Both the position numbers and the translations under genes were made by a program. From the IMG/VR virus record IMGVR_UViG_3300022822_000020, positions 1 through 59,528 of that record: a DNA stretch of 59,528 bases; one strand, 5' to 3'. This document shows, in pieces, positions 2,031 through 38,447 of the stretch. This DNA is from a virus (taxonomy: Duplodnaviria > Caudoviricetes). Below the pieces are notes generated by a model that was not told the DNA's origin, did no database searches, and saw only the letters and a program-made list of their open reading frames with translations. The number at the start of each line of letters is the position of its first letter. Positions within the stretch are counted from its first letter, which is position 1.

Positions 2031-4199
2031 ATGATTGTTATAGAAAAGCTGAAAGCTGACTTACTAAAAAGACAGCAGCTTTTAAGGGTAGATCGACATA
2101 TCCATACTGCCTTTTTAAAAGAAATAGATGCTGATGACTTGATTAGTATAGCGTATCCTTACATACTAAGAGGTCTTGAGAGAAAAGCAGCTATGGTAGA
2201 AATCATAGTACCTATTGGTAACGCTATACGGTTAAGGCAAAGTCTTAAAACAGATACGGTATCTGATGCTCAGGTAGGCTGGTTCATTGCTGTTTCTTTT
2301 ATTGAATGTAAGATTCTAGGTTACAGGCTAAAGCACTTGTATCGTAATGGTAAAAAGAATAAACACCAATCTTACTTTTTTACATTAAAAGACTGGAAAG
2401 CAATCAAAGAGCTATGGAATCAGATCTCTATTGAAAAGACTAACCTGTTTCCTACGAGAACAGTCCCTAGTGATTGGGAAGATCCTATCCATAAGACAGG
2501 TATACCTATAATTAAAAAGGGTCACCCGCAAGCACTTGCTAAGCTACAGAAGCACACTAACCCAATAAATTACGATGTCTTAAATAAACTTCAAAAAATT
2601 GGTTGGAAAATTAATACTGAAGTGTTTAGTGTTTATCAACAGTGTATGCGTATTGAAGAAGGTGAGAGTCCCTTTAAGTTCTCAAAAGAGATTGATGAGC
2701 AAAAGAAAAAATCATTATTAATTGAGGTTGATGCAATTGAACAGATAGCATTGTCTAACATTGGTTCTACCTTTTATCATATGTATAACTATGACTTTCG
2801 TGGTCGTATTTATACTAATACTGCGTTCTTGCATGAACAAAGTAGTGACAACGCAAAAGGCTTACTACTATTCAGTAGAGGCTACCCTCTGCTAGAGAAG
2901 GGTTATTACTGGTTAGCAGTGCATACTAGTAACTGTTATGGTAATGATAAGGTTAGCTTAGACGATAGGTATTTCTTTGTATGCGAGAACATGGGTTTAT
3001 TCCTATCGTATGCAACAGCCCCTATGCGTAATACAGATTGGATGAAGGCAGACAAACCATTTTCATTCTTAGCTTGCTGTTTTGAGTTACAGCATATCTT
3101 AGAGTTTGAAAGGGAGGGTAATAACATTGAGGATTACGTTTGTAGATTACCTATATACATTGATGGCTCTAATAATGGCGTACAACATCTTGTTGCAATG
3201 TCAAAGGACGAGACTATTGCCCACCTAGTTAATCTAGTCCCTTCTGAGCTACCCGGCGATGTCTACATGTATATCGCTAAATATGTTTGGGAAAAGCTAG
3301 CGGATAAGGCAAGTAAGCTTACACATCAAGAGAGAAATTCTTTTGAAGAAATTTATAACACAGCTATACAACTTCAAAAGGCTTACCAAGAATCTCCTGA
3401 AAAAAGCGAAGCTAAGGCATCTGCATACATGGCTGCTCAAGAATGGCGCAACAAAAATAGAGCTATCCGAGAAAAGCTTTACCCTGTATACTGGTTAAAT
3501 ATCGATAAAGCAAAAGATCAACGTAAAGTTGTTAAACGCAATGTTATGACGCTTGGTTACGGTGGCACAGCTTACGGTATGGGTCAACAAATCATTGAAG
3601 ACACCCGTGATATGTCAGAGTATCTACGTGATAAAGAACATCTCTGGGGTGCTTTACTCGGTAACCTAGTGTTTGAAACTTGTTACGAGAAGCTCGAAGG
3701 ACCTGCTAAGTTATTACGCCTGTTTCAAGATGTTGCTGCTAGAGCTAACGAAAGAAATGAATTTCTTGCATGGAAGTCTCCTGTAACTAACTTTCCAGTA
3801 ATACAAGGCTATAGGAAGCCAGTAGATAAAAGAACTAAATTAAGATACGGTAACGAGGAATTAAAAATTATTGTACAGGCTTGGGAAGAATCTACTATTG
3901 ATAAAGATTCTCAGAAGACAGGCGCAGCACCAAACATTGTGCATAGTCTTGACGCTGTACATCTTGCAATGGTGGTTAACGCTACACCCTATCCTGTTAC
4001 TGTTGTACACGATTCTTTTGGTTGTCACCCAACTAATATGGATCATTTGTTTAAGCTAGTAAGACAAGAGTTTGTTAATTTGTATGCACAATACCCGCTA
4101 CAAAACATACTCACTCAACTCGACTGCCTAGACTTACTACCCGAGCTAGGTAACTTAGATACAAGCTTGATACTTGAATCTGATTACGCATTTTGCTAA
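2031..4199 (+). CDS. T7-like single-subunit DNA-dependent RNA polymerase (RNAP-1), 722 aa
   Basis: DFRGRIY, motif A DGSNNGVQH, motif B RKVVKRNVMTLGYG, APNIVHSLD, motif C VHDSF, C-terminal SDYAFC. Confidence 0.97.
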   Translation: MIVIEKLKADLLKRQQLLRVDRHIHTAFLKEIDADDLISIAYPYILRGLERKAAMVEIIVPIGNAIRLRQSLKTDTVSDAQVGWFIAVSFIECKILGYRLKHLYRNGKKNKHQSYFFTLKDWKAIKELWNQISIEKTNLFPTRTVPSDWEDPIHKTGIPIIKKGHPQALAKLQKHTNPINYDVLNKLQKIGWKINTEVFSVYQQCMRIEEGESPFKFSKEIDEQKKKSLLIEVDAIEQIALSNIGSTFYHMYNYDFRGRIYTNTAFLHEQSSDNAKGLLLFSRGYPLLEKGYYWLAVHTSNCYGNDKVSLDDRYFFVCENMGLFLSYATAPMRNTDWMKADKPFSFLACCFELQHILEFEREGNNIEDYVCRLPIYIDGSNNGVQHLVAMSKDETIAHLVNLVPSELPGDVYMYIAKYVWEKLADKASKLTHQERNSFEEIYNTAIQLQKAYQESPEKSEAKASAYMAAQEWRNKNRAIREKLYPVYWLNIDKAKDQRKVVKRNVMTLGYGGTAYGMGQQIIEDTRDMSEYLRDKEHLWGALLGNLVFETCYEKLEGPAKLLRLFQDVAARANERNEFLAWKSPVTNFPVIQGYRKPVDKRTKLRYGNEELKIIVQAWEESTIDKDSQKTGAAPNIVHSLDAVHLAMVVNATPYPVTVVHDSFGCHPTNMDHLFKLVRQEFVNLYAQYPLQNILTQLDCLDLLPELGNLDTSLILESDYAFC

Positions 4200-4222
4200 T
4201 TTAATTGAAATCAACGAACTGT

Positions 4223-4241
4223 ACCAGGGGACGCTAAAGAA
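4223..4241 (+). promoter_or_regulatory. Phage RNAP promoter-like motif, copy 1
   Basis: ACCAGGGGACGCTAAAGAA, intergenic, right after the RNAP-1 gene. Confidence 0.8.
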
Positions 4242-4302
4242 CTACTGGTATAGATTCACCACAAGTACGTTTACTACAAACAACATCTAAAAGGAAAACA
4301 TC

Positions 4303-4881: not shown

Positions 4882-4910
4882 AGGGAAATACTACGGTGTT
4901 TCCCTATTTT
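4882..4910 (+). terminator. Intrinsic terminator-like hairpin after SSB
   Basis: AGGGAAATAC-TACG-GTGTTTCCCT (UNCG loop), then ATTTT. Confidence 0.75.
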
Positions 4911-4931
4911 ATCAAATTGATGAGGTTTTAA

Positions 4932-6016: not shown

Positions 6017-6279
6017 TGCCTTATATTGCAGATCGTTTTAAATCATTTCTTGACACTAAGGCAGTAATGGAGGTCGGTGACCTTTGTACTACTCCCGGAG
6101 AACTTAATTATGTACTTACTACAATCGTAAAAGAATACTTTGCTCGTACCGATAAGTGCAACTATCAAGCTATTAATGATATTCTTGGAGCATTAGAGGG
6201 CGCCAAGTTAGAGTTCTATCGCCGAGTAGTTGCTGATTACGAGAACATTAAGATTAAAGAAAATGGAGATGTATACTAA
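6016..6279 (+). CDS. Conserved hypothetical phage protein
   Basis: PGELNY...NDILGALEGAKLEFYRR...ENGDVY; TAATG coupling. Confidence 0.75.
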   Translation: MPYIADRFKSFLDTKAVMEVGDLCTTPGELNYVLTTIVKEYFARTDKCNYQAINDILGALEGAKLEFYRRVVADYENIKIKENGDVY

Positions 6280-6968
6280 TGGAAAATATGTACGAAATAT
6301 TTGATGTTCAAGGTAAACTAAGAGATACTAGCGTTCGTTTACAAAGCGCATATAAGGCGTCTCTGGATATACCCTTTTCGGTTGTCCATGCTAGCTCTAC
6401 TAAAAGTGGTAAAAAATGGTTGTTTAGCGAAGAAGATTTTATGACATATGCGGATACAGATTTAGATGATTGGGAACGTATACAATTTAAAAAGTACATA
6501 GCTGAGCTAGATAAGGCTAATTCAAAAGAATTAGATTTACCAAAAGAAGAACTTACATCTAGCAAGGAATTCAGTAACTATACGGTGAAACTAAAACCAA
6601 AAACAACAGTAGATAATAACCCAAAGACTCAAGTAGCCTTAAGTAAGCCACGACTCAGTGATGTGCCTCCTGTTTCTTTGTTTGCATTAGGTGCTGCAAT
6701 GAGTGATGGTGCTGCTAAGTATGGTCGGTTTAATTGGCGCGATACTAGCGTAACAGCCTCTGTGTTTTATGATGCAATGATGCGACATTTAACTGATTGG
6801 TATAATGGTGAAGAACATGCCCATGACAGTAAAGTAAGTCACCTTGGTCATATTATGGCTAGCTGCGCTATCTTACTTGATAGTAAAGCAGAAGGCGTAT
6901 TTATTGATGATCGCAAACCAAGTGAACAGTTAAACGTTTCTCGTTCATCACATCTTTGGATAGATTAG
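6279..6968 (+). CDS. Protein with C-terminal dATP/dGTP diphosphohydrolase (DUF5664-like) domain
   Basis: NPK..KPRLSDVPP, GAAKYGRFNWR, YDAMMRHL..W..GE, SHLGH.MA motifs. Confidence 0.8.
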   Translation: MENMYEIFDVQGKLRDTSVRLQSAYKASLDIPFSVVHASSTKSGKKWLFSEEDFMTYADTDLDDWERIQFKKYIAELDKANSKELDLPKEELTSSKEFSNYTVKLKPKTTVDNNPKTQVALSKPRLSDVPPVSLFALGAAMSDGAAKYGRFNWRDTSVTASVFYDAMMRHLTDWYNGEEHAHDSKVSHLGHIMASCAILLDSKAEGVFIDDRKPSEQLNVSRSSHLWID

Positions 6969-9186: not shown

Positions 9187-9738
9187 ATGTTTGATAACCT
9201 GAATAATATTAAGCTAGAAAAAGAAATCGGTCAACTTTTCTTGGAAATACTACAGAAAGAAGATCCAAACGCAGCACTTGCGGGTGGTGCATTACGTAAT
9301 TGGGATGAGGGAAAATCTTGTAACGATTTTGATTACTTTATGAATATGCCTTCTCATATGAGTCTAGGGCAGATGCGTAAAAAGTTAGAAGTTATTTGCG
9401 GTAGGTCTGTTAGTATTCTTTCAGATGAAGCATATCTATTCTCAACTGAAGCAAAGAAAGCTATCTCTGGTGTATTTGAAGTTCAATTACTTTCTAAGAC
9501 TGTTCAGATTATTGTGTTGAATAACATGCGTGTTGGGGAGTATATTTTTAAACACTTTCCAGTTAGCAATTCACAAATTTGGAGTTACGATTGTAAAAAT
9601 TTAGGCGTAATCAAATCAGACTTGTATGATTACGGTAAGAAATATAATTGTATTTTTGTATCTAAAGATATCTCTGCAACATACTACGAGAAAATCAAGA
9701 GCTACTATCCTAACAAAACAATGTTGTTTAGCACTTGA
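9187..9738 (+). CDS. Nucleotidyltransferase-fold protein (CCA/poly(A) polymerase head-like)
   Basis: LAGGALR...NDFDYF motif; SD AAGGA favours ATG 9187 over track start 9079. Confidence 0.65.
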   Translation: MFDNLNNIKLEKEIGQLFLEILQKEDPNAALAGGALRNWDEGKSCNDFDYFMNMPSHMSLGQMRKKLEVICGRSVSILSDEAYLFSTEAKKAISGVFEVQLLSKTVQIIVLNNMRVGEYIFKHFPVSNSQIWSYDCKNLGVIKSDLYDYGKKYNCIFVSKDISATYYEKIKSYYPNKTMLFST

Positions 9739-10154
9739 AACACAAGAAATATGATATCCTTTACATGGATATTGCTAAACGGATAGCGCAGATGTCTTTC
9801 GCTGTAAAGCGCAAAGTAGGTGCTATTGCAGTTAAAGACGACAATATCCTAGGTTTTGGTTTTAACGGTATGCCAGCAGGTTTTAATAACACCTGTGAGC
9901 ATACTCTTGAAGATGGTAAATTAAAAACTAACACGGAAGTACTTCATGCAGAAACAAACCTAGTAGCTAAGCTATCAAGAAGTTCCTTAAGCCTAGAGGA
10001 CGCAACAGTATATGTTACAGCAGCACCTTGTATTAAGTGTGCAGTGTTGTTGTCACAGACAAGAATCAAACAAGTGTATTTTGATGAATATTTCTCAAAT
10101 GATGAGGGTATTTATCTACTAAACAAAGTCGGAATTGGAGTAAGTAAATTATGA
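9735..10154 (+). CDS. dCMP deaminase
   Basis: KVGAI, GFNGMPAG, HAETN, PCIKC zinc motifs. Confidence 0.9.
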   Translation: MKHKKYDILYMDIAKRIAQMSFAVKRKVGAIAVKDDNILGFGFNGMPAGFNNTCEHTLEDGKLKTNTEVLHAETNLVAKLSRSSLSLEDATVYVTAAPCIKCAVLLSQTRIKQVYFDEYFSNDEGIYLLNKVGIGVSKL

Positions 10155-17066: not shown

Positions 17067-17481
17067 TAAGTTAATAGAGAAATATAAAGAGCTTAAGGGT
17101 TTAGTTATTTCTATTGACGAATTAACAGCAGAAAGTGAAGAACTAGCATACGAGTTATTTCTTAATGGCTCAAAGGTTATTGTACCGCATAGAAGCTCTC
17201 TTGACGCGAAAAGAACTTCTGATTCTCTTAGCACGAAAATTGCGAGACTATCTGGTTCAGCTTTACGATATCAAGTATCTAATCACGCAAGCGTGTATCA
17301 ACAAAAAGCGGACTTAATGATCTGTTTCAACAAAGGAAAATTCGATGAAAAATATAGCGGAGCAAAACAGTTCTACTACGTTGAAGACTATAATGTCACA
17401 AATGAAGAGTTCTCGGAAACCAGTCAGCAAGACGAATCGAAACCTAAGAGGGGGCGTAAGCCAGGAACTAGAACTCTTTGA
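17050..17481 (+). CDS. Hypothetical protein with basic C-terminus (KPKRGRKPG)
   Basis: ORF track. Confidence 0.6.
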   Translation: MTTIYNKLIEKYKELKGLVISIDELTAESEELAYELFLNGSKVIVPHRSSLDAKRTSDSLSTKIARLSGSALRYQVSNHASVYQQKADLMICFNKGKFDEKYSGAKQFYYVEDYNVTNEEFSETSQQDESKPKRGRKPGTRTL

Positions 17482-18001: not shown

Positions 18002-18005
18002 ATTT

Positions 18006-18032
18006 AGGGAAGCCTTCGGGTTTCCCTTTTTT
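18006..18032 (+). terminator. Intrinsic terminator at the end of the replication module
   Basis: AGGGAAGCC-TTCG-GGTTTCCCT plus T tract. Confidence 0.88.
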
Positions 18033-18048
18033 ATCAAAAAGGTTAGTT

Positions 18049-22873: not shown

Positions 22874-23066
22874 AGTAACATTACTACCTAGGGATGTAGA
22901 AAAGATTAAAGAGATCATTGAACTAAACAACATTGTATCTGACATAACAGTCGAATGTGATAGCAGCTCAGGTATCGGGTCTATCATAACAATGAGTTGG
23001 GAAGAAGAACACAACGGACTAAACACCAAAATGACTATTGAACTTTCAGGCGTGGAGAATTGGTGA
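22866..23066 (+). CDS. 66-aa ORF with ATA in place of ATG (IAKVTLLPRD...DSSSGIGS...SGVENW)
   Basis: AAGGAGAAGAATT-ATA in the same context where neighbours have ATG; open to TGA 23064-23066. Confidence 0.6.
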   Translation: MAKVTLLPRDVEKIKEIIELNNIVSDITVECDSSSGIGSIITMSWEEEHNGLNTKMTIELSGVENW

Positions 23067-23308
23067 TGGACTATGAGGAAATAGGCGCTGAGATGCGTAA
23101 TGAAAAGGATGCTTTAATACTGCAAGGTCTTGTTAAAGAGCTCTTTGATAAGTATTTAAACCGAGTGGAAGAGAGTGATAGCGGTACTGAGTTCAGCCCT
23201 ATTACACTTAGCTGTTGTAGGGTTATGATGTTAGAGCCGTTGAATGATTTATTAACAAGGATGGCAAAGCTGTCTGGTGCAAAGGCGAAGGTGACTTATG
23301 AACTTTAA
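23060..23308 (+). CDS. Hypothetical protein
   Basis: ORF track; start may be ATG 23066. Confidence 0.65.
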   Translation: MVMDYEEIGAEMRNEKDALILQGLVKELFDKYLNRVEESDSGTEFSPITLSCCRVMMLEPLNDLLTRMAKLSGAKAKVTYEL

Positions 23309-23522
23309 AATAACAATATGTGATGGTGACGTGGATAAGATTACTGTTTCCAACTTACAGGAGACATTAAAAAACTTACAAGAGGATTTATCTCGTAGAG
23401 AACACAACAAAGGGTACGCCATCTTTGTGTTAGACAAGGAAAGAGACGTTATAGAGATTAACAAACGAATAAACGCTACTAGTATTATGATTGATTATTT
23501 TGTAGGAGCTATAGATGAATGA
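23298..23522 (+). CDS. Hypothetical protein
   Basis: ORF track; SD AAGGTG. Confidence 0.6.
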   Translation: MNFKITICDGDVDKITVSNLQETLKNLQEDLSRREHNKGYAIFVLDKERDVIEINKRINATSIMIDYFVGAIDE

Positions 23523-23850
23523 TGAAGGAACGGGCAACGTGAGCCTATTACGTGAGAACGAAGATGGCAGTGCTGTCTACCAGTTTGACTTTCCACCAGA
23601 GGCACTAGCAGCCTTGACGCGGTTAGGCATACTCACTGCTATAAAGGCAGGTATTAGTGAAGCTAAGAAACTAGCACCTGATTATGAAGCTGACCTAGAG
23701 TTCACAGAGGAGATTAAAAGCTTGGCTGAAGAGGCTGGATTTTGTATGTGGCAGGATGAGAGTTACAAGCCGGAGGGTGAGGTGGTAGACTGGGCTTGTA
23801 AGTATGACAAAGAGTTAGTTAAATTTTATCATTTAGTTAGAGCAATGTAA
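23515..23850 (+). CDS. Hypothetical protein with RENEDGSA domain
   Basis: SD AGGAG; N-terminal domain paralogous to the C-terminus of 24858..25313. Confidence 0.7.
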   Translation: MNDEGTGNVSLLRENEDGSAVYQFDFPPEALAALTRLGILTAIKAGISEAKKLAPDYEADLEFTEEIKSLAEEAGFCMWQDESYKPEGEVVDWACKYDKELVKFYHLVRAM

Positions 23851-23854
23851 ACAT

Positions 23855-24130
23855 ATGAAAAAAGCAATAGCAACCGTGATATTGGTGTTAGCTAGCTTGT
23901 CAGCTTCGGCAGTAACTCTACCCTTAAAATGTAAGTTATATGACGATAGTGCGGAAAGACTTGCAAGGATGGAATATACTGTTATTATTCGATCACAGCT
24001 AGTTAATGTGTTTGGTATTGGTTCTACATGGCTAGTAGAATATCGTAATAAGAAAACAGGAAATGTAGCAGCTTTTGTATTAACTAAAGATAGTACTTGT
24101 TTGCTTTATGAGTATGCAACAACTCAATAA
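23855..24130 (+). CDS. Small secreted protein (signal peptide MKKAIATVILVLASLSASA)
   Basis: ORF track; Sec-type signal peptide. Confidence 0.7.
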   Translation: MKKAIATVILVLASLSASAVTLPLKCKLYDDSAERLARMEYTVIIRSQLVNVFGIGSTWLVEYRNKKTGNVAAFVLTKDSTCLLYEYATTQ

Positions 24131-24237
24131 ACGGTTAATAAAGCAAAGCACTTGATTATTATGATTCTATTTTCTTAAAGAATAATACAAAAAAAAAAAT
24201 GATAGATATATTTGAGTTAACTTAGGATATCAAATGA
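24114..24237 (+). pseudogene. Possible frameshifted small pseudogene MQQLNKRLIKQ/ALDYYDSIFLKNNTKKKMIDIFELT*DIK*
   Basis: One extra A joins two frames; premature TAG 24223-24225; final TGA overlaps ATG 24234; A11 run at 24189-24199. Confidence 0.3.
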
Positions 24238-24590
24238 TTTTAAAGATGAGTGACATTATTAAAGGCTCAAAGTTGCTACTATGGGATGGTACTGACCATG
24301 AGTCATATCATACAAGAAATGATAGTGAGCTAGAAGAATATAGCTGTTGCGCAGTTTATAACTCGGCGCAAAATATTACTAAGCAAAATGATGTTGATTT
24401 TCATTTAAGTGAAGATATCAAAATCATAACAGCAGAGTTAGTATTGGCTGGCTTACCAGATCCAACAAATATCTGTTTCGACTGTAATACAGAAGAAGAA
24501 ACTCAGGCAGTAAGATTTATTTGGCTCTGCTTTCTAGAGCTGTACTATAAAGAGAATGAAACAGTTATTGAGGAAAATGAAAATGCGTAA
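24234..24590 (+). CDS. Hypothetical protein (RFIWLCFLE motif)
   Basis: ORF track; SD AGGA. Confidence 0.65.
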   Translation: MILKMSDIIKGSKLLLWDGTDHESYHTRNDSELEEYSCCAVYNSAQNITKQNDVDFHLSEDIKIITAELVLAGLPDPTNICFDCNTEEETQAVRFIWLCFLELYYKENETVIEENENA

Positions 24591-24631
24591 TAGAGGAGCT
24601 TCCTATATATTTATACCTAATTGAAAAAATA

Positions 24632-24799
24632 ATGAAAGATAGAGTTATCTTTGGAGAAAATTACGACCTTGCTGGTTGGTACTTTGTTTTAGGTATAACA
24701 TTAGTCCCTGATGTCGGTACTCACAAGTGGTCATTAGGTTTTGAATTTGGTTTTTGGCATATTGTAATTGGGATTGGGGATAAAAGTGGAATTAAATGA
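24632..24799 (+). CDS. Small aromatic/hydrophobic protein, 55 aa (MKDRVIFGENYDLAGWYF...)
   Basis: Open frame filling an intergenic gap; weak SD. Confidence 0.45.
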   Translation: MKDRVIFGENYDLAGWYFVLGITLVPDVGTHKWSLGFEFGFWHIVIGIGDKSGIK

Positions 24800-24857
24800 T
24801 TTAATGCGACCCATCGAATAAATTAATTAAAAGATAATACTATGTTAAGTTACACAA

Positions 24858-25313
24858 ATGAAAAAGGAAATAATAATGCAAATTGAAGTTAATGATGAGA
24901 TGGTTGATCAGCTAGTTTTAGAAAATATCTCAAATACTTTAAGATCAATGGAAGCTGATCTTAAAAGTTACGAAGACCCTAATCATGGTTGGATAGCTAT
25001 CTTTGATACTAATGAAGAAGTCGATAAGGCCAAACTTCGTGAAATGAGAGCAGCACTACGCCTTGTAGTAGATTACTATGGTGGAAAAGACGTGGAAGCT
25101 TACGAAGATTACGAAGATTCAACTGAAGATGCTACATCAGAAAGTATTGGCTCCGTTAGCTTGATTCGTGAAAATGAAGACGGTAGTGCAGACTATTCAG
25201 TTAATCTACCATTAGAAGCGGCAGCTGCTCTTACTAGGCTTGGTATTTTAACAGCTTTGACAGCAGGTGTTGCAGATGCTAAGAGACTTAAACCTACAGA
25301 TGCCGTGGAGTAG
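24858..25313 (+). CDS. Two-domain hypothetical protein with C-terminal RENEDGSA domain
   Basis: ORF track; the second ATG (MQIEV) has AAGGA SD. Confidence 0.7.
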   Translation: MKKEIIMQIEVNDEMVDQLVLENISNTLRSMEADLKSYEDPNHGWIAIFDTNEEVDKAKLREMRAALRLVVDYYGGKDVEAYEDYEDSTEDATSESIGSVSLIRENEDGSADYSVNLPLEAAAALTRLGILTALTAGVADAKRLKPTDAVE

Positions 25314-25315
25314 TA

Positions 25316-25444
25316 ATGAAATTTATAATTAGCATAATTAGCGCGTTTATCTTGTTTTTTACGGTTTCTGTAGCAGGGCTAATCGGTATTGGCTTTCTCG
25401 ATGCAATAATAAACGAACCGTGGAGGTTTGTAGGAGATGATTAA
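25316..25444 (+). CDS. Small single-TM protein, 42 aa (MKFIISIISAFILFF...)
   Basis: SD GGAG, ATG 25316, TAA 25442-25444. Confidence 0.55.
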   Translation: MKFIISIISAFILFFTVSVAGLIGIGFLDAIINEPWRFVGDD

Positions 25445-25970
25445 TAAATGTCAATGTAGTACTTGTAGCTCCCCTACTGACTATTTAACAAGTGAGTTTA
25501 CAGTGGAATATGACGGTAAAGTGTATTCTACAAGAGATGATTTAACTCGTATTCTGTTTAATCATTGTCAAGAGGCTGGTGCTTTTAACTTATATCGAAA
25601 AAAGAAAGAGTACTGTAAAAGTTTATTAAGCTCACTACTTAATAACCCAGAGCTTGAACAACTATGGTGGGATTCAACTAATCTAGCCTTTTCAAATCAG
25701 ACACCTAATGAGGTCTTTAAAGAAGATCGGGATCGTGTTTTTAACTATTTAAACAAATTTATAGGTAACCAAATGAAACTATACGAGTTAACTAGAGGTG
25801 ACAAGTTCATTGTTCATCCCGATGTCGAAAAAGAGGCTAACGTATACACCTTTGTTAAGCTAGATGGTATGTACTCTATCTGCTTAGATAAAGAAAAAGA
25901 AGTAGTACACTGGTCAGTGTCAACCCCCGTTATACCGGTAATACACGTAGAGGATACTGTAAATGATTAA
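25437..25970 (+). CDS. Multi-module hypothetical protein (central Xre/MbcA/ParS-C-like segment; C-terminal MKLYEL module)
   Basis: ORF track; WWDSTNLAFSNQTPNE..RV.NYL; internal ATG 25773. Confidence 0.6.
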   Translation: MINKCQCSTCSSPTDYLTSEFTVEYDGKVYSTRDDLTRILFNHCQEAGAFNLYRKKKEYCKSLLSSLLNNPELEQLWWDSTNLAFSNQTPNEVFKEDRDRVFNYLNKFIGNQMKLYELTRGDKFIVHPDVEKEANVYTFVKLDGMYSICLDKEKEVVHWSVSTPVIPVIHVEDTVND

Positions 25971-26636: not shown

Positions 26637-26657
26637 CGTTAAAAATCATGGACTTGC

Positions 26658-26676
26658 ACCAGGGGACGTTAAAGAA
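26658..26676 (+). promoter_or_regulatory. Phage RNAP promoter-like motif, copy 2
   Basis: ACCAGGGGACGTTAAAGAA, intergenic, start of the late region. Confidence 0.82.
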
Positions 26677-26878
26677 TAAGCTCCCTCCGCCCGGGTGTAA
26701 TTATTAGAGTTATAGACCTATTTTAGGAACTACACCCTAGAAATCTTTAAGATTAGAACTAGGGAAGCACTACCTAAGAAGTAACCTTAGTTACTCAAAC
26801 CATAGTTATTATTATCCTCATTATTGTAACCCTTAGTTGTTTTAATCCTTAAAATAGTAATACTAATATTAATAAACT

Positions 26879-26897
26879 ACCAGGGGACGTTAAAGAA
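26879..26897 (+). promoter_or_regulatory. Phage RNAP promoter-like motif, copy 3
   Basis: ACCAGGGGACGTTAAAGAA, 43 nt upstream of ATG 26941. Confidence 0.82.
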
Positions 26898-26940
26898 TAC
26901 GTCCTATACAAAACAAACAAATTAACCTTGGAGAACCATT

Positions 26941-32004: not shown

Positions 32005-33606
32005 ATGGCGAACTTAACAACTACTACAACTAAGGCGGCAACAAAATCTGTTGGTGATCCTTCAGCCTCTTATGAGTCTCTACGCACCCTCTGGAAGCGA
32101 TCACGGGCTGTCCTAAATGGACAAGCTCAAGCAAAAGCTTACGATGACATTCTCGATGTTTACACCTACAAGAATTTGTTATTGCCTTTTAGCCCTAAGA
32201 TGACACAGGAGCAATTCAACTTCTATCGTGCAGAGGCAGAGTTACCGGGTCTAGTATCCCAATATGCTAAGGTGCTCGTGGGTGGACTATTGCGTAAACC
32301 GCCTCAACTAACACTACCTGATAGTGTACCTGAAGGTGCTGAGTCTTGGTTAAAGAATAACTTTAGTGCTGACGGTATACCTATGCTATCTTTTCTTGAT
32401 GAAGCTATCTGGGAAGAACTACAGACATCTCGTGCGTGGATTATTGTTGATCATCCTGAAGTAGATAATTACGATGAACTTTCCCCTGAACAGCGTGACA
32501 TGATTAGCCCCTATGCTATGGTTGTCAAGGCTGAAAACGTTATTAATTGGCGTAAGGGTAAGGGTCGCTTTAGTAATGCTGAGACATTAACTAGTCTGGT
32601 TATGCGGTACTATATGCCTAACTATGATAGTAATCCGTTTCATCCTGACTATGTAGACACAGTGAGCCACTACTATCTCGATGAAGAGGGTTATTTTGTT
32701 ACTGATACTTATCAGCGTAGAGATACGAATGACACTGTTGATGTGATCAACGGTAACTTAAGTCCGCAGTATATTCAGTCATTAACTACTCAAGATTGGT
32801 CCTTAATTAGTACGCAAAAACCCCTAATGCAAGGTGAAAGAATCCCATATATTCCGGCCTTCCCTTTAAACGGTCAAGTAGACCCTATTGAACCTGCCCT
32901 ACAACCCCTTGTAGACCGTGAAGTATCATTGTACAATAAGATATCCCGCCGTAACCATTTACTATATGGTGCAGCAACATACACCCCTGTTGTTATGTCT
33001 GATATGACTGATGAGCAGTTTGATGATATCGTTGGTGCAGGTCTAGGTTCGTGGATTCACCTACGCAAAGAAGACTCTATCAAGGCGCTTGAAACACCTA
33101 CTGGCTCATTATCTGATATGGAAAACGCTATATCAGCTACTGTTGAAGAAATGGCTAAGATGGGCATCCGTATGTTATCACCGGAAGGTAGTGGACAGAG
33201 CGGTGTAGCTCTCGAGATCCGTAATGCTGCACAAACAGCACAATTGGGTCTGTTAAACAACAAGATTTCTAAGACAATGCAGTCAGTTATTACTGTTATG
33301 TTAAATTGGAAATATGGCTTAGGCTTAAATGAATCGGATGTAGATTTTACTTTGAGTGCTGACTTTAATCCAACACCTATGGGTGCTGATTGGATGCGAC
33401 TAATTACAGATTGGTATCAGCAAGGTATTATCCCACGTTCTACTTTTATTGCTATTGCTAAACAGAATGATATTCTGCCAATTGACTACAATGATGACGA
33501 AGGTGTTTCTGAGATTCAAACAGACCCGCTTGTAGGTACTAATGCGTCTAACATTGATGCTAGTATTCTTGAGAACCTAAAAACAACTCTAACAAAAGGA
33601 GTCTAA
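32005..33606 (+). CDS. Portal protein (DUF4055-like)
   Basis: 533 aa, first gene of the head module; Y..RAE, RKPP, SGVALEIR-type motifs. Confidence 0.8.
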   Translation: MANLTTTTTKAATKSVGDPSASYESLRTLWKRSRAVLNGQAQAKAYDDILDVYTYKNLLLPFSPKMTQEQFNFYRAEAELPGLVSQYAKVLVGGLLRKPPQLTLPDSVPEGAESWLKNNFSADGIPMLSFLDEAIWEELQTSRAWIIVDHPEVDNYDELSPEQRDMISPYAMVVKAENVINWRKGKGRFSNAETLTSLVMRYYMPNYDSNPFHPDYVDTVSHYYLDEEGYFVTDTYQRRDTNDTVDVINGNLSPQYIQSLTTQDWSLISTQKPLMQGERIPYIPAFPLNGQVDPIEPALQPLVDREVSLYNKISRRNHLLYGAATYTPVVMSDMTDEQFDDIVGAGLGSWIHLRKEDSIKALETPTGSLSDMENAISATVEEMAKMGIRMLSPEGSGQSGVALEIRNAAQTAQLGLLNNKISKTMQSVITVMLNWKYGLGLNESDVDFTLSADFNPTPMGADWMRLITDWYQQGIIPRSTFIAIAKQNDILPIDYNDDEGVSEIQTDPLVGTNASNIDASILENLKTTLTKGV

Positions 33607-34007: not shown

Positions 34008-37000
34008 ATGGCTATTAACGATGATCTCTACGATAGAATTGTACAGCATTTAGCTGATACAAGGCTATACGAGTTAGAAACACAAACTAATGTCTCTCGC
34101 GGTATTCGCAGACACCAGAAAAGGCTTAGAGATCTTCTAGTACGCAATATCCGAGCAGATATGAAGCCTGAGATTACTCGCGCAATGAAAGAAATAAACA
34201 GTATTGCAAGTAATAGCGTAAATGATTTTGCTGGTGCAGCTTCCTCTTTTCATGCTAACAACTTACAGAAATCTACAGGTAGCTTCTTTAAGGTTATAAA
34301 ACCTTCTGCTGCTGAAACAGCAATTGATATCATTGGTCCAAACATCAAAGTATCAAAAAGCTTAAAAGATCATTTTAATTCTATTGGTTCTGGTGAATTA
34401 AATAGAATTAATGGTAAAGTTAGAGATGGTTTAGCAAATAAATTATCACAAAAGCAGATCATTGAAAGTGTTATAGAGACAACCAAATTAACCGAATCAC
34501 AAGTTAAATCCCTTGTGAGAACCGCTATTACCCGTACTGAAGCTGTGGCTATCGATAAGGTGATGGAAAGAAACAAGGACATTATTTATGGATATCGTTT
34601 TACTGCTGTACTTGACGCTCGAACAAGTACTACCTGTTCCAGTCTCGATGGTCAAGTATTCCCTCTCGAGGACGTTCGATATAGACCACCTCTTCACTGG
34701 AATTGCCGATCAGCGTTGGTCCCCGTTTTAAAGACTAAAGAAGATATACTAAAGACTGACTCAGAGAGACTTAAAAAGCGTAAGCTACAAGAAGTAGCTG
34801 CTAACCAGCTTAATGGTAAGTCACCTAATGTTGAGGATTACTCTACTTGGCTATTAAGACAGACCATGGGTATTCAAACCCAACACCTTGGTTCAGAAGA
34901 AGCTGCAACGCTCTTCCAAGCAGGTACTCTTAAAGTAACAGAGTTCTTTACCGCTAAAGGCCGTGGTATTAGCATTGCTGCATTACGTCAACTAGATAAT
35001 GCTAGGACGTTAGTATTCCCTAACCGACAAGCGGCTATTAGTAAGATTGACAATGATGGTAATAAGTTACTAAGCATCAAGCGACCCTACGATCTTCTTC
35101 GGAGTACAGATTATCAGAAACAATTAAGAGCTCTCTATATTGCTGACTCTGATGATATTCGTCAAGCTATGTCCTTAACTGACTTTAGAGGTACAACTTT
35201 AGCCGGTAAACGTAGCGTCCGTATGCGAGCTAACAATGAATTTGATGAACGTAATCAGTCGTTTGATCCCTTTACAGGTGAAGTTAAGTCTACACTGCTT
35301 TATGACCCTGACCTGTCTGTCTATCAAGAACGATTGGACTTCCTTGACAACTCTAAGTTGCTAACAAAAGACCAAAAAGGATTTATTAGAGACTTTGCTG
35401 AGAGCCTTGAAGATCAGGTTAGTGTAAATAATCAATCAGTTATTGTAGAGAATCTACGTATTCTATTTGAGCGTTATGCCAAGGACAAGACACAGTGGGA
35501 TGACTTCATTAAGGTCTCAAGAGCTGAACAGCAGTTTAGTGTAGCCAACGTATCTCGCATCCTCGATAGACGGTCAAGAGAACGAGCAGAACTGTTTGCT
35601 AAATACCTTGGTGGTGAAGAGGCGAAGGTACAGATTCAAGGGCGCTACTTCTCTTTCCAAGATTTAGTTGAGAATCAACTCGGTAATCAAAGGTTTATTG
35701 ACAACTGGTCAAGAGACTTTGGTAGAGAGCTAGCACGCTCAGTCTACTACCGTGGTAGGTCGCCGTTACGTACCTACTTTTTTAAGCCTAGTAATATTGA
35801 CGTTAACGATAAAATACATAACTGGATTAAGACAAATATACCCGGTGCTAAAGCATTATATATCCGAGAGTTAGATGATATTGAGGTATTCAAGAAAATC
35901 AAACAGAAAATAAACTCTGTTAAAGATTTTTTAGATATCGATAAGCAATTAACATCAAGCAAAGAACAAATCAGAAAAATAATTGACTTTGAAATATCAG
36001 CAAGAAGCTTAAAGAATAAATACGTAAATAATTTTCTTGATGAAACTTTAAATGACAAACAAGCTATTGATCTCCTTTCAAAGATTCTAGCAGGTGTTGC
36101 AGACGGTAAGGCTACTGATTACGATTCTATCGCTATTAATATTGGTAAGACGCTAAGAGACAATTGGAAATTACCTTTCCCATCGTATAAATCTACACTC
36201 GCTGACTACCACAAAGACGGTTCTGATATCCTACAGCTTTTAAAAGAGCAAGGAAAGATCAAGATACAGCTGAGAGGTAAATCAAGACGAAGTGTTACTG
36301 ACCTCGAAACAGGTAGAGCTACAGGTGCTTGGAAAGACACAATATCAAGAGAAGTTCTCATTGTTGATAAGGATATGCTGGAGCTTCAATCGAAGAATCG
36401 ACAAATATTACTCACTCAACGATTTGGTATTACTAATAATCGTGATAAACTATTTGTTAAAGCAGGTCAAAAGACTTACTTTGATGCAAGAGGTAAAAAC
36501 ACAGGTATCAGTATTATTACAAGACGTGCCTCTGGTAACTATGATAAGGTATTAGTAGATAAAGACTTTGCTAGGATGCTAAATCACACTATGAGTGTTG
36601 AGTACGAAACTGATCTTGATTTTGCTTCGTTTATGGATGATCTTGTACGCTTTAGAGACCCACGAGGTAACTCTGCTAAGTATGATGAGATTAATGAGTT
36701 CAGAAAACTTATCATAAAACGAGGTGATCAAGGTTACGGTTTTATGCAAACTGTAAAGTACCACAATCAACGAGGTAAGCCCTTCACAGTAGTAGCCCAG
36801 ATTGATGGCAGGGGACGCGTTTACTATCAGGGATACCTTACCCCTACCGGAGGTGAAGTTGTTCGACCGTTCCTCAACTCTGCTGTCTCTCAGCCTTTTG
36901 GGTTGCAGGAGTTGAAAGAGCTAGCTGTTCAAACAGGCTCGTTGATCGGTCCGGCTACAGAAGCTCTATCTAATGCGGGTAGGTTGGCTATCTTTGAAAA

Positions 37001-38447
37001 GAATGAAGCTGATATTTTATCACTTGGTAGGTTACTGTTGTCTAAGACTCAGAGAGATCGCCGTATAAGGGAATTTCTTGAACATCCTCTTATTGTAGGA
37101 TTAGAAGCTGAAGAAGTACCTAAGATGTCAAGGTTAGCTCTTGAGTATGCACGAGTCTATGATCATGTTAACGGTAACTTTACGGATGCTAAAAAGTTAA
37201 GTACATATCGCACAAAGCTAATGATTGAGAATGACGCTTCTTCAAGCGGTGCTCAGATTATTGGTTTAAGCACACGAGATAGAAGTATTTCACTAAACTC
37301 TAACGTAGTACCTACTACACAAAAGAACAGGTTGTATGACCTTGTTGCTATGGACACCGTTGGTGATCCTGAATTTCAGATGATTGATAAGCTAGCTGAT
37401 GCTAATATTCAATGGACTGATTTACAGAAAGCAGCAAAAGCACAAAATATGGTTTCATTTTACGGTGCTGGTAAAGCCACACAAGCCGCTAACATTGAAG
37501 CTAAATTTGCGGGTATCCTTCAAAAGAAAGGTTATACCGTAATTACAAGAGAAGAATTGCGTGGTGTTAACAATCAAATTGATAAGTTAATACGTGACGC
37601 TGACCGTATTGGTGCAGATAACACTGTATATGGTCTAAAACAGTTAAAACGTGAACTGATAGATGTACTAGAAAACGAAGTCCCCGTGGGACGAGAGTTA
37701 CTTGCTGCAGCTAGGGACGTTCACCCTGATGTTGAAGCCTTCGTGGATAAACTCTCAAATACGAGAGTAGGTCTAATCGGTCCTCAAGAATTCAGACAAG
37801 TATCCGAGATTATGTCAAGGAAGCTTGCTGAAAGAGCACCCATTACTCAGAAGTTCGTTCAGTTCTGGAAAGAAGCAGCAAAGATTTATGTTGATGAAAC
37901 TCAAAAAGTAGATATACCTTGGGTTACATTCGATAAAAAAGTGCTGTACCAACGCTACCGTCCTAAGATTCAAACAAGTATTGAATTCAAAGACCCTATA
38001 ACAGGTAGAATGGTTAGGAACATTTATGAAGCAAAAGCAGAAGATGCGACATTATTAGGAAAAGCTAGTCTAAACAGAGCGGGAATCGGTATGGGTGTTA
38101 ATGGTAATCATATGAATGACGCCAGTATTGTTCGGCAATTCCATTTATGGGGTGCGAGAAGCAATACACCTACAGCTACAATTCATGACGCTTTCTTTAC
38201 AAACATCGGTAATGCTCAAAAAGCTAAAGATGCCTTAAGGGTTATTTATGCAGATTCACTTGATAGTGATACACTATTAAATACGCTTAAGCAACTACGC
38301 CGAGAAGGAATGTCAAGAAAGAGTTATGATCTGTTAGTAAAAAGAGCCATTGAAGATGGCTTACTAAACCCAGCTAATGCTTTGACTAGAGAAGAGATTT
38401 TAGCGCCGATTAGACCCGGTTATGATTTTTATGGAATCGGTCCATAA
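34008..38447 (+). CDS. MuF/SPP1-gp7 head morphogenesis domain fused to a second T7-like RNA polymerase (RNAP-2, putative virion RNAP), 1479 aa
   Basis: N-term YRFTAVLDARTSTTCSSLDG..PPLHWNCRS; C-term DGRGRVY, DASSSGAQ, QKAAKAQNMVSFYG, NGNHMND, IHDAF. Confidence 0.88.
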   Translation: MAINDDLYDRIVQHLADTRLYELETQTNVSRGIRRHQKRLRDLLVRNIRADMKPEITRAMKEINSIASNSVNDFAGAASSFHANNLQKSTGSFFKVIKPSAAETAIDIIGPNIKVSKSLKDHFNSIGSGELNRINGKVRDGLANKLSQKQIIESVIETTKLTESQVKSLVRTAITRTEAVAIDKVMERNKDIIYGYRFTAVLDARTSTTCSSLDGQVFPLEDVRYRPPLHWNCRSALVPVLKTKEDILKTDSERLKKRKLQEVAANQLNGKSPNVEDYSTWLLRQTMGIQTQHLGSEEAATLFQAGTLKVTEFFTAKGRGISIAALRQLDNARTLVFPNRQAAISKIDNDGNKLLSIKRPYDLLRSTDYQKQLRALYIADSDDIRQAMSLTDFRGTTLAGKRSVRMRANNEFDERNQSFDPFTGEVKSTLLYDPDLSVYQERLDFLDNSKLLTKDQKGFIRDFAESLEDQVSVNNQSVIVENLRILFERYAKDKTQWDDFIKVSRAEQQFSVANVSRILDRRSRERAELFAKYLGGEEAKVQIQGRYFSFQDLVENQLGNQRFIDNWSRDFGRELARSVYYRGRSPLRTYFFKPSNIDVNDKIHNWIKTNIPGAKALYIRELDDIEVFKKIKQKINSVKDFLDIDKQLTSSKEQIRKIIDFEISARSLKNKYVNNFLDETLNDKQAIDLLSKILAGVADGKATDYDSIAINIGKTLRDNWKLPFPSYKSTLADYHKDGSDILQLLKEQGKIKIQLRGKSRRSVTDLETGRATGAWKDTISREVLIVDKDMLELQSKNRQILLTQRFGITNNRDKLFVKAGQKTYFDARGKNTGISIITRRASGNYDKVLVDKDFARMLNHTMSVEYETDLDFASFMDDLVRFRDPRGNSAKYDEINEFRKLIIKRGDQGYGFMQTVKYHNQRGKPFTVVAQIDGRGRVYYQGYLTPTGGEVVRPFLNSAVSQPFGLQELKELAVQTGSLIGPATEALSNAGRLAIFEKNEADILSLGRLLLSKTQRDRRIREFLEHPLIVGLEAEEVPKMSRLALEYARVYDHVNGNFTDAKKLSTYRTKLMIENDASSSGAQIIGLSTRDRSISLNSNVVPTTQKNRLYDLVAMDTVGDPEFQMIDKLADANIQWTDLQKAAKAQNMVSFYGAGKATQAANIEAKFAGILQKKGYTVITREELRGVNNQIDKLIRDADRIGADNTVYGLKQLKRELIDVLENEVPVGRELLAAARDVHPDVEAFVDKLSNTRVGLIGPQEFRQVSEIMSRKLAERAPITQKFVQFWKEAAKIYVDETQKVDIPWVTFDKKVLYQRYRPKIQTSIEFKDPITGRMVRNIYEAKAEDATLLGKASLNRAGIGMGVNGNHMNDASIVRQFHLWGARSNTPTATIHDAFFTNIGNAQKAKDALRVIYADSLDSDTLLNTLKQLRREGMSRKSYDLLVKRAIEDGLLNPANALTREEILAPIRPGYDFYGIGP

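Follow-up and report, generated by a model that had tools for sequence, protein, structure and literature searches.

Two RNA polymerases in a long-tailed salt-lake phage

The stretch of DNA analyzed here, referred to as the window, comprises the 59,528 nucleotides of IMG/VR record IMGVR_UViG_3300022822_000020 (86% complete) and belongs to a long-tailed salt-lake phage. Profile searches identified genes for a tape measure, tail terminator, major tail protein, distal tail protein and J-like fibre, as befits a siphovirus, and Pfam and PHROG searches of the window's ORFs returned no match to a sheath protein. All ORFs with family matches lie on the + strand, in agreement with the co-orientation of genes described in a first-pass annotation of this DNA. 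That annotation had also reported two distinct T7-family RNA polymerases in a siphovirus-type genome, which is confirmed by the Pfam and PHROG matches together with the tail genes. The closest cultured relatives are the Naomviridae roseophages DSS3_VP1 and DSS3_PM1, the DNA of which contains deoxyuridine; identity to their counterparts is 49.1% for RNAP-2 and 46.7% for RNAP-1 (to the DSS3_VP1 RNA polymerase). The roseophages differ in genome size (~75 kb) and in the order of their modules, and the papers describing them, the subject of which is deoxyuridine DNA, mention RNA polymerase not once.

RNAP-1 (2031..4199, +) closes the early region and is a canonical short, stand-alone T7-family enzyme of 722 aa. 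It matches PF00940 over aa 286-697 (272 bits, E 1.2e-80) and phrog_414 (E 6.8e-132), and its translation contains DFRGR at aa 255-259, motif A as YIDGSNNGVQH, motif B as RKVVKRNVMTLGYG and motif C as VHDSFG. The length, the canonical motifs and the position ahead of the first promoter copy are thus as originally noted. In phylogenetic analysis, RNAP-1 groups with the enzymes of T7, SP6, phiKMV and Xp10 (SH-aLRT 97%), whereas RNAP-2 stands apart on a very long branch and represents a deep, separate lineage rather than a duplicate of RNAP-1.

A MuF head protein fused to a T7-like polymerase

RNAP-2 is encoded by a single open frame (34008-38447, +; 1479 aa) with matches to both PF04233 and PF00940. 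As the first-pass annotation had recognized, the gene lies in the head module, between those of the portal protein (32005..33606, +; phrog_145, E 1.9e-54; PF13264) and the scaffold/major head protein (38496-40280, profile matches). A motif scan of the window found no promoter motif between 26879 and RNAP-2, which is therefore a late gene of the head operon. The protein consists of a MuF/SPP1-gp7 minor head protein (aa 1-345; 34008..35042, +) and a complete T7-like RNA polymerase (aa 548-1479; 35649..38447, +), joined by a conserved helical linker to which no family is assigned (aa 346-547; 35043..35648, +). The N-terminal module matches PF04233 Phage_Mu_F at aa 133-237 (41.2 bits, cut-off 29.6) and the head morphogenesis family phrog_241 at aa 47-331 (E 1.5e-50), and is the sole MuF match of the record. 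Residues 336-561 have no Pfam match, and the linker region contains helices modelled with confidence and numerous invariant residues. In a related Pelagibacter phage, Kolga, the MuF protein gp59 is 32% identical to aa 1-335 (E 6e-49) and shares this module with RNAP-2 but bears a different C-terminal cargo, which argues that MuF acts as a carrier.

Matches to the polymerase part range from marginal for PF00940 (22.2 bits, barely above the cut-off of 22; aa 1060-1433) to E 1.7e-23 for the RNA polymerases of phrog_414 and, in a Foldseek search, E 2.5e-18. In the structure model (pLDDT 80.4), residues 209-1139 superpose end to end on residues ~31-883 of T7 RNA polymerase (Z 25-32), and the T7 fold is retained in full, specificity loop and N-terminal domain included. 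The modelled enzyme resembles the T7 and mitochondrial polymerases (Z 24-32) more than the N4 mini-vRNAP (Z 15-18). Across 26 relatives of 48-80% identity, the DxRGR motif (D933, R935, G936 and R937), both catalytic aspartates (D1076 and D1394), the motif B residues K1144, Y1152 and G1153, and the HD of motif C (H1393 and D1394) are invariant, which points to purifying selection on an active enzyme. Motif B does read Q-x3-K-x7-YG, as initially reported (Q1140, K1144, Y1152, G1153), and the equivalent of T7 R627 is the only catalytic residue missing. At this position, occupied by Q in the window, the relatives mostly have A (16 of the 26, with Q in 7), although 25 of 26 retain the adjacent K1141.

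The fusion is the rule for relatives of RNAP-2, which are encoded in 455 viral contigs. Homologues of 1392-1602 aa with PF04233 account for 114 of 120 among the matches listed, and a scan of 1.84 billion representatives found the extra ~545 N-terminal residues in all full-length matches and no stand-alone form of the polymerase. Identity in the polymerase part (55-85%) is equal to or above that in the MuF part, and all five long relatives have both polymerases. DSS3_VP1 and DSS3_PM1 also carry the fusion, there annotated 'head morphogenesis'; a literature search returned no published description of it.

Early and middle/late promoter-like motifs

Promoter-like sequences of two classes only were found, termed P_E and P_ML. 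P_E (449..485, +; AAAAAAGTGAGAAAA-ATGACGT-ATCTATAATGAAGAA) follows an intrinsic-terminator-like hairpin with a T-run and ATCAAA (405..440, +) that closes the preceding late tail-fibre unit; the terminator scan places an 11-pair stem at 405-430, followed by TTTTATCAAA. The two-block consensus, AAAGTGAGAAAA-N7-ATCTATAAT, was found in all five genomes examined (the window, G001, G004, G005 and DSS3_VP1), always on the coding strand, upstream of RNAP-1 and downstream of a late terminator; a terminator-like layout precedes it in the relatives too. A 35-nt block is unchanged across 12 copies (the window and nine other contigs), with diverging flanks. The 19-base degenerate pattern gave 118 matching stretches in viral contigs, and in five of five long contigs chosen by P_E alone a gene for RNAP-1 lies downstream. 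P_E would thus constitute a separate, family-wide class of early promoter that a virion enzyme could read. Neither this class nor the MuF fusion of RNAP-2 featured in the first-pass annotation.

The early region (544..2028, +) contains ~7 small ORFs with no family matches, six of which were searched against PHROG with no match. Immediately 5' of RNAP-1 are two tandem 45-nt elements (1819..1908, +; direct repeat D16) of the form CTCCC-N-GCYAC-GGGGAG-..TAAT..-GTRGC-T-run-ATCAAA. Their helix covaries in relatives, where four variants occur (GCCAC/GTGGC, GCTAC/GTAGC, GCCAGC/GCTGGC and GCCTGG/CCAGGC), and the terminator scan picks 1869-1896 within them; they are possibly an attenuator or a terminator.

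P_ML is a promoter-like motif of SP6/T7 type, TACCAGGGGACGTTAAAGAA, present in five copies. The repetition first reported is borne out by ACCAGGGGAC, of which five exact copies and one with a single mismatch occur (1.09 expected), every one of them on the + strand; none of 100 shuffles reached six. Copy 1 (TACCAGGGGACGCTAAAGAACT; 4222..4243, +) starts 23 nt past the RNAP-1 stop, much as phi1.1A of T7 lies 26 nt past the stop of gene 1, and P_ML directly follows RNAP-1 in three relatives also. Copy 2 (26654..26678, +) lies beyond a T-rich terminator at the close of the middle region, copy 3 (26875..26899, +) heads the packaging and head operon, of which RNAP-2 is part, copy 4 (42100..42124, +) follows the major tail protein gene and copy 5 (57454..57478, +) precedes the last tail-fibre genes. 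DSS3_VP1 has a variant of the motif, with a copy at the place equivalent to copy 4, and it is in this variant that the likeness to the SP6 promoter TAGGTGACACTATAGAAG, as located in SP6, is clearest. Comparison of specificity loops gave no pairing of enzyme to promoter.

A proposed two-polymerase relay

The first-pass annotation had proposed a cascade in which packaged RNAP-2 gives rise to early transcripts and RNAP-1, which then transcribes the middle and late genes. The sequence fits this scheme in that RNAP-2 is fused to MuF, belongs to the late head operon and retains its catalytic residues save one, and in that, as in T7, the first ACCAGGGGAC-type promoter comes immediately after RNAP-1, the last gene of the early region. 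In such a phage-run relay, RNAP-2 would be made late and guided by its MuF module to the procapsid's portal vertex. A complete T7-type polymerase would thus be present, in a few copies, inside the capsid. Entering the cell with the DNA, it would initiate at P_E and transcribe an early unit of ~1.5 kb that terminates with the RNAP-1 gene. By analogy with T7, RNAP-1 would then read the SP6/T7-like promoters TACCAGGGGACGYTAAAGAA; beyond the first copy, these stand in front of the packaging/head, tail and fibre units. That RNAP-2 is carried in the capsid and switches on the early genes without the host enzyme is probable on this evidence, and the full division of labour, with the early promoter read by RNAP-2 and those of the middle and late genes by RNAP-1, is the reading to which we give moderately good odds.

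We consider it rather unlikely that host RNA polymerase reads P_E to produce RNAP-1, which performs all later transcription, and that RNAP-2 is packaged for another role in entry, such as transcription-driven genome pull-in, retention of the leading DNA end at the portal or replication priming. P_E holds a perfect TATAAT as well as an upstream block rich in A, and a host sigma-70 enzyme might recognize it through an unusual upstream element. The early genes of T7, which shares the gene-then-promoter layout, use the host enzyme, and Kolga has an RNAP-1-type enzyme and a MuF protein that bears no polymerase, so that the lineage can manage without one. However, the promoter scan found no -35 box with a 16-18-nt spacer in P_E, sigma-70-like sites are not enriched (11 versus 17.2 expected; 40 versus 46.8), and Kolga, one distant genome, lacks the two-block motif. 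The phage also encodes its own primase-helicase (family search). Moreover, both blocks of P_E stay invariant even between the window and a distant roseophage, a pattern more in keeping with a conserved phage enzyme than with the sigma factors of varied hosts.

Less probable again is that RNAP-2 never reaches the next cell, either remaining portal-bound like SPP1 gp7 or working in the producing cell, where it might transcribe late genes or prime replication and its MuF part would be cleaved off or irrelevant. Vinga and colleagues are said to have found in 2006 that co-ejection of gp7 with SPP1 DNA in vitro is undetectable, so a MuF anchor alone does not imply entry, and a ClpP-type protease (17345-18001; PF00574, E 2.3e-30) could process the fusion. 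A capsid-locked polymerase would, however, have no access to template, P_ML is common to middle and late genes, which leaves no third promoter class for a late polymerase, and the strictness of the fusion in hundreds of relatives suggests that the capsid address matters. The marginal Pfam score, the loss of the R627 equivalent and the long branch might even be taken to mean that the polymerase part is an inactive relic, now a bulk or structural piece of a minor head protein; we find this very hard to reconcile with invariance of the remaining catalytic and NTP-binding residues, an entire T7 fold and a polymerase part at least as conserved as its MuF partner.

The first-pass comparison with coliphage N4 (Schitoviridae) holds for the logic, in which a capsid-borne T7-family polymerase is injected, reads early promoters and is succeeded by a short second one (RNAPII), and RNAP-1 itself matches the N4-like RNA polymerases of phrog_2166 (E 1.8e-50). 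It does not hold for the virion enzyme, since RNAP-2 is structurally nearer the T7 and mitochondrial polymerases. N4 is a podovirus, and its gp50 (34523-45025; 3500 aa, no MuF) carries regions of its own for injection and encapsidation, along with a metallopeptidase domain (Iyer 2017); according to the same paper, N4-like virion polymerases are confined to N4-like phages. Compared with T7 and SP6 (Autographiviridae), RNAP-1 shares its grouping, promoter style and a first phage promoter directly after the polymerase gene. The window's virion is long-tailed, however, RNAP-1 is shorter than the T7 enzyme by ~166 N-terminal residues (DxxGR at 255 versus 421), and T7 has one polymerase and needs that of the host for its early genes.

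One siphovirus, Thermus phage P23-45, is already known to combine a virion polymerase fused to a structural protein with a second polymerase, although of unrelated fold. Its virion enzyme is reported to transcribe pre-early genes including that of the second, non-virion polymerase; both are homologous to cellular polymerases and the tape measure serves as carrier, whereas here both are T7-type and a MuF head protein takes that role. In Pfam, the tape measure of the window had no polymerase match. MuF polymorphic toxins and polyvalent proteins share with SPP1 gp7 and RNAP-2 an N-terminal MuF and a variable C-terminal cargo, and are believed to be packed into the head and passed on together with the DNA (Jamet 2017; Iyer 2017). 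Jamet 2017 gives 1-2 portal-bound copies of gp7 per capsid and proposes delivery of the cargo upon injection. The cargos described differ in that they are toxins and effector enzymes and belong to temperate phages; 'RNA polymerase' does not occur in Jamet 2017, and MuF is not tied to any polymerase in the passages of Iyer 2017 consulted.

Were the relay to operate as proposed, host RNA polymerase may be dispensable at every stage, which would make sense if the DNA carries deoxyuridine for thymidine, as in DSS3_VP1. The DSS3_VP1 deaminase has a homologue in the window; for the dTMP phosphatase of DSS3_VP1 none was found in this record, which is 86% complete.

Two T7-family polymerases in one siphovirus-type genome

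The record of 59,528 bases has an estimated completeness of 86% and lacks end repeats, and its + strand carries every ORF with a family match, in keeping with the co-orientation described in the first-pass annotation. At its start, small early ORFs are followed by RNAP-1, a stand-alone short T7-family RNA polymerase (2031-4199, +; 722 aa), by a replication and nucleotide block (family A DNA polymerase, dCMP-deaminase-family protein, exonuclease, primase-helicase, ribonucleotide reductase, and ClpP-like protease), and then by many small ORFs. The head part runs from terminase through PhoH, portal, and RNAP-2 to scaffold and major head protein; adaptor, tail terminator, major tail protein, tape measure, distal tail protein, J-like fibre, and tail fibres come after it. 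Judged by this gene order, the layout is that of a siphovirus, which fits the genome type named earlier. The nearest named phages are the cultured roseophages DSS3_VP1 and DSS3_PM1 (full-length identities of 49.1% for RNAP-2 and 46.7% for RNAP-1), followed by EBPR siphovirus 1 and then by the Pelagibacter siphophage Kolga. With core genes and the RNAP-2 fusion in common with DSS3_VP1, the phage appears to be a relative of the Naomviridae at family or neighbouring rank. Its DNA is present in 16 public runs, all of them DNA runs from salt-lake and freshwater metagenomes, with no RNA runs among those listed.

Between 20000 and 24000, the G+C content is 0.42 versus about 0.36 and the GC skew is strong; the same region holds three tandem 69-nt coding repeats (21791-21989) and a 34-nt pair (22314/22746). 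The tail-fibre genes (55980-59528) are rich in degenerate Ser/Ala/Thr repeats, including a 60-nt family in 18 copies, and the final ORF continues past the end of the record.

RNAP-1 matches PF00940 at 272 bits against a cut-off of 22, which places it within the T7 family, and its translation contains the motifs that had been described as canonical: DFRGR at 255-259, motif A as YIDGSNNGVQH, motif B as RKVVKRNVMTLGYG (R-x3-K-x7-YG), and motif C as VHDSFG (T7 motif definitions, checked on the T7 alignment). The DxxGR element begins at residue 255, compared with 421 in T7, so that ~166 N-terminal residues are absent. In each of the 5 long related records, of which four are 100% complete, the fusion is accompanied by an RNAP-1-type gene; the RNAP-1-type products there measure about 722-737 aa, apart from one (in record G004) in which an insertion extends the frame to 1020 aa.

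RNAP-2 (34008-38447, +; 1479 aa) consists of a MuF module (aa 1-345), a linker (346-547), and a polymerase (548-1479), and it lies in the head module, where the first-pass annotation had put it. Its match to PF00940 just passes the cut-off (22.2 bits against 22; 23.6 bits in a six-frame search), and that to phrog_414 has an E value of 1.7e-23; the RNA_pol match is weak but colinear. Catalytic residues (DxxGR, motifs A and C) are colinear with T7 D421-R425, D537, and H811-D812, and D933, R935, G936, R937, D1076, K1144, Y1152, G1153, H1368, H1393, and D1394 are invariant in all 26 relatives compared (48-80% identity). Motif B has the form Q-x3-K-x7-YG, exactly as first read. An AlphaFold model of aa 340-1479, built from 26 sequences (pLDDT 80.4, pTM 0.70), retrieved T7 RNAP in Foldseek at E 2.5e-18, and in a structure alignment (VIA) model residues 209-1139 (protein 548-1478) spanned T7 from ~31 to 883 with Z 25-32. 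The predicted structure thus contains the whole T7 fold, with N-terminal domain, thumb, palm, fingers, and specificity loop, the hairpin of the last aligning with that of T7. The same model gave Z 24-28 against mitochondrial RNAPs and 15-18 against the N4 mini-vRNAP, which is therefore not its nearest structural kin. When the RNAP-2 family profile was compared with the PDB, T7 RNAP was found at E 2.6e-5 through 3 colinear stretches, which cover DxRGR, motif A, and the region from the specificity loop to motif C.

The polymerase part of RNAP-2 matched 513 clusters, with proteins of 813-2589 aa; among the best 120 of these, 114 were 1392-1602 aa long and carried PF04233, and the other 6 were shorter and came from contigs of 6-11 kb. 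IMG/VR stretches encoding an RNAP-2 relative numbered 455, and in the DSS3_VP1 record the fusion protein (21242-25633) is annotated 'head morphogenesis'. When 1.84 billion representatives were scanned with phmmer, only 129 matches came back, the polymerase part beginning near residue 545-565 in every full-length one, and neither a stand-alone enzyme nor ordinary T7-like polymerases were reached. The fusion gene of some relatives is broken near motif B into N-parts of 1115-1182 aa and C-parts of about 311-344 aa, the two halves being separated in EBPR siphovirus 1 by an HNH endonuclease gene, and in others it is lengthened to 1821-2073 aa (the set comprises L097 gp47-gp49, from EBPR siphovirus 1, and the homologous proteins P0127, P0136-P0145, P0147, P0154, and P0169). 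These splits and lengthenings resemble insertions of the homing-endonuclease or intein type, placed where conservation is highest.

The phylogeny of both enzymes that had been suggested was run as a quick maximum-likelihood tree (22 rows, 884 columns), leaving out mitochondrial RNAPs, phiCbK, and N4 RNAPII (a two-protein split). RNAP-1 clusters with its relatives (97% SH-aLRT) and next with Kolga (85%), beside T7, SP6, phiKMV, and Xp10 (97% for the whole group), and RNAP-2 stands apart in a clade of its own (99%), the branch to which is 3.8 changes per site long. Its placement relative to N4, whose mini-vRNAP has a branch of about 5, is tentative, since the tree software flagged a meeting of long branches. 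BLASTP aligned RNAP-1 with RNAP-2 at 21% identity over 193 residues (E 0.002); RNAP-2 is clearly not a recent duplicate of RNAP-1.

The MuF module as a candidate carrier

Residues 133-237 of RNAP-2 match PF04233 (MuF) at 41.2 bits against a cut-off of 29.6 (46.2 bits in six frames), and residues 47-331 match phrog_241; a six-frame search of the record found no second MuF gene, this match being the sole one. The gene lies in the head module beside that of the portal (32005-33606), with one 132-aa ORF before its start at 34008. The linker, aa 346-547, is conserved and helical and matched no family, and the predicted fold of aa 1-560 (pLDDT 81.5), when compared with 48,161 chains, resembled generic helical bundles only (best Z 10.5 over 93 residues). 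A complex prediction for the portal with the MuF module (residues 1-345) scored 0.00, an outcome that gives no answer and speaks neither for nor against.

SPP1 gp7 is described as portal-bound at 1-2 copies per capsid (Jamet 2017), and delivery on injection is proposed for MuF proteins with C-terminal enzymes (Jamet 2017; Iyer 2017). The idea of MuF as a carrier is supported by Kolga gp59 (L096:4001-5899), which has the MuF module in common with RNAP-2 (32% identity over 347 residues, E 6e-49) and a different cargo at its C terminus, namely 290 aa with an HEFAH motif, for which the zincin-metallopeptidase matches are sub-threshold (22.4 bits against a cut-off of 25.6). Kolga also encodes thymidylate synthase and a divergent gene block. 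In the window, a ClpP-type protease (17345-18001; PF00574, E 2.3e-30; PHROG 'head maturation protease') is situated within the replication block, distant from the head genes, and could process head proteins, the fusion included.

Two classes of promoter-like motif

Two promoter-like classes were found, of which one, the middle/late class P_ML, is the ACCAGGGGAC motif of the first-pass annotation, and the other, the early class P_E, had not been listed there. P_E (AAAAAAGTGAGAAAAATGACGTATCTATAATGAAGAA, 449-485) stands directly past a strong terminator-like hairpin (405-440). Its central 29-mer recurs exactly in 9 other viral contigs (11 copies), and the 12 copies taken together share an invariant 35-nt block with differing sequence on both flanks. 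With mismatches allowed, the blocks AAAGTGAGAAAA and ATCTATAAT, 7 nt apart, occur twice each in DSS3_VP1 and the related records G001 and G005 and three times in the related record G004, always on the coding strand and between the late-operon end and RNAP-1; the two sites of DSS3_VP1 lie at 35.8 and 36.2 kb. A 19-base degenerate pattern of the motif is present in 118 viral-contig stretches, often 2-4 in tandem, and the consensus over 90 distinct sites reaches aAAAAAGTGAGAAAA-ataa.Gc-ATCTATAAT-ga. Long contigs chosen via P_E alone had an RNAP-1-type gene downstream in 5 of 5 cases; the fusion was over the cut-off in 2 of these and partial at the contig end in 1, the other two records being 87% and 65% complete. 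The two-block P_E was not found in Kolga, which is a weak control, being distant and AT-rich with many chance single-block matches at 2 mismatches.

The early unit behind P_E ends in RNAP-1, and the first P_ML comes right after. The motif ACCAGGGGAC is represented by 5 exact + strand copies and one mismatched copy; the expected number was 1.09, and none of 100 shuffles gave as many as 6. In the fuller form (T/C)ACCAGGGGACG(T/C)TAAAGAA, P_ML copies lie at 4222, 26657, 26878, 42103, and 57457 (+). RNAP-1 does precede the first copy, as had been noted, with 23 nt from its stop to the start of the motif; T7 phi1.1A fires 26 nt past the gene 1 stop. By analogy with phi1.1A, where TATA is followed by the +1 G, transcripts from P_ML would begin with the G that follows TAAA (4239 for copy 1). 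Relatives carry the motif as ACCAGGGGACGCTAAAGAG, and directly after RNAP-1 as ACCAGGGTACGCTAAAGCAC, but the G005 clade has no P_ML. The exact 17-base form was matched in 110 viral-contig stretches, many of which come from the fusion-bearing contigs. DSS3_VP1 has about 14 copies, AATAGG(G/T)(T/G)(G/A)CGTTAAAGAGGGG, and its variant TAGGTGACGTTAAAGAG closely resembles the SP6 promoter TAGGTGACACTATAGAAG, confirmed in the SP6 record. The RNAP-2 gene itself sits in the late head operon, and no promoter motif was found between 26879 and this gene. Specificity loops of the window and DSS3_VP1 share 39% identity in RNAP-1 (47% overall) and 53% in RNAP-2 (53% overall), differences too weak to pair enzymes with promoters.

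Other candidate RNA and promoter elements were seen around these genes. Tandem 45-nt elements (1819-1908) lie just upstream of RNAP-1 and have counterparts in relatives L085 and L125-L130. In them, CTCCC...GGGAG is invariant and has between its halves one arm of a second helix, the two arms of which covary in four variants, giving a pseudoknot or terminator/antiterminator topology; they also contain TATAAT or TAATAT, then a T-run and ATCAAA. From sequence, they are a possible attenuator of RNAP-1 expression. The terminator-like hairpins at 405-440, 4882-4915, and 18002-18040, and those of relatives, have a conserved tail in common, TTTTTTATCAAA, past the T-run, possibly an element of the signal at which a phage polymerase terminates. 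In Kolga (L124), two intergenic copies of AAAAAGACAC(T/C)CTTACAGA, at about 31.45 kb and 36.63 kb, may be a promoter of that phage's own polymerase.

A proposed relay and its relation to known systems

We propose, tentatively and as a reading that falls a little short of an even chance, that a whole family of long-tailed phages with worldwide range, found in salt lakes, fresh water, and the sea and with the Naomviridae among its members, transcribes without host RNAP. A portal-bound MuF protein would deliver a complete T7-type polymerase, ejected with the DNA, which would read the long bipartite and family-invariant AAAGTGAGAAAA-N7-ATCTATAAT and so switch on a second, truncated T7-type polymerase with SP6-like promoters. 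As the most likely mechanism for the phage studied here, RNAP-2 would ride in the capsid, enter the cell with the DNA, and then read P_E, and RNAP-1 would read P_ML. The suggested function of RNAP-2 as a packaged and injected reader of early promoters is an analogy with N4.

The perfect TATAAT contained in P_E counts against such a relay; a sigma-70 scan at P_E gave no + strand site, GTGAGA lying only 13 nt from TATAAT, and sigma-70-like sites were not enriched in any region tested. SPP1 gp7 is reportedly not co-ejected in vitro, which again argues against it, as does the loss from RNAP-2 of the equivalent of T7 R627. Residue 1140 is Q in 7 of the 26 sequences and A in 16, the remaining 3 having V/T/S, and K1141, the neighbour of this lost motif B arginine, is kept in 25.

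Virion-carried RNAPs are known from podoviruses (N4), from jumbo and crAss-like phages, and from one Thermus siphovirus. Virion polymerases start infection in N4 and P23-45 (Iyer 2017 for N4), and the N4-like enzymes are stated there to occur only in N4-like phages. Iyer 2017 and the N4 record describe gp50 as a protein of about 3500 aa that has its polymerase in the centre and a zincin metallopeptidase domain fused to it, whereas the 1479 aa of RNAP-2 contain only MuF and RNA_pol in Pfam. The P23-45 polymerase is homologous to cellular RNAPs and is located on the tape measure; RNAP-2, in contrast, has a predicted T7 fold, and the tape measure of the window (43524-48704) matches TMP_3 only in Pfam. 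The principle by which a virion RNAP hands over to another phage RNAP, including fusion to a structural protein in a siphovirus, is already known; a T7-type enzyme on a MuF carrier, together with its promoter pair, is not. No description of a MuF-RNAP fusion was found in the literature searched (MuF/gp7 with virion RNAP, Naomviridae with RNA polymerase, and siphovirus virion RNAPs), and the DSS3_VP1 papers (Rihtman 2021; the 2025 dU-enzyme paper) contain, in their main texts, 0 mentions of RNA polymerase.

The strategy here would be that of a compact T7-type enzyme placed on the commonest siphovirus minor head protein, in hundreds of environmental genomes and two cultured roseophages. The presence of the fusion in the latter makes the relay directly testable in Ruegeria pomeroyi DSS-3. 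If true, it would be a third independent invention of a virion-RNAP relay, beside N4 and P23-45/jumbo phages, and the first shown MuF delivery of a non-toxin enzyme, meaning that MuF would carry useful enzymes and not toxins alone. RNAP-2/P_E and RNAP-1/P_ML would then be two new orthogonal pairs for in vitro transcription and synthetic biology.

A possible rationale for phage-encoded polymerases is the base content of the DNA. Deoxyuridine (dU) replaces dT in the DNA of DSS3_VP1 and DSS3_PM1, and the dU phage AR9 (AR9/PBS1 group) encodes RNAPs itself, among them one that reads deoxyuridine promoters; by this analogy, the relay, if true, would give a reason why dU-DNA phages of separate lineages bring their own polymerases. 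The window has two dCMP-deaminase-family ORFs (9735-10154 and 19815-20123), the first of which matches the DSS3_VP1 dCTP deaminase over 9750-10088 (36.5% identity, E 1.5e-14), and no homologue of the HD-family dTMP phosphatase or of the kinase was found within the 59.5 kb. With the deaminase homologue as the sole dU-related match, the rationale is tentative for this phage. The ORF at 6279-6968, named by PHROG as 'endolysin; inhibits RNA polymerase', was considered as a T7-lysozyme-type RNAP inhibitor and rejected on its Pfam match to dGTP_diPhyd_N (PF18909, E 7.3e-23); the PHROG name looks misleading, and the domain is the N-terminal one of a dATP/dGTP diphosphohydrolase.
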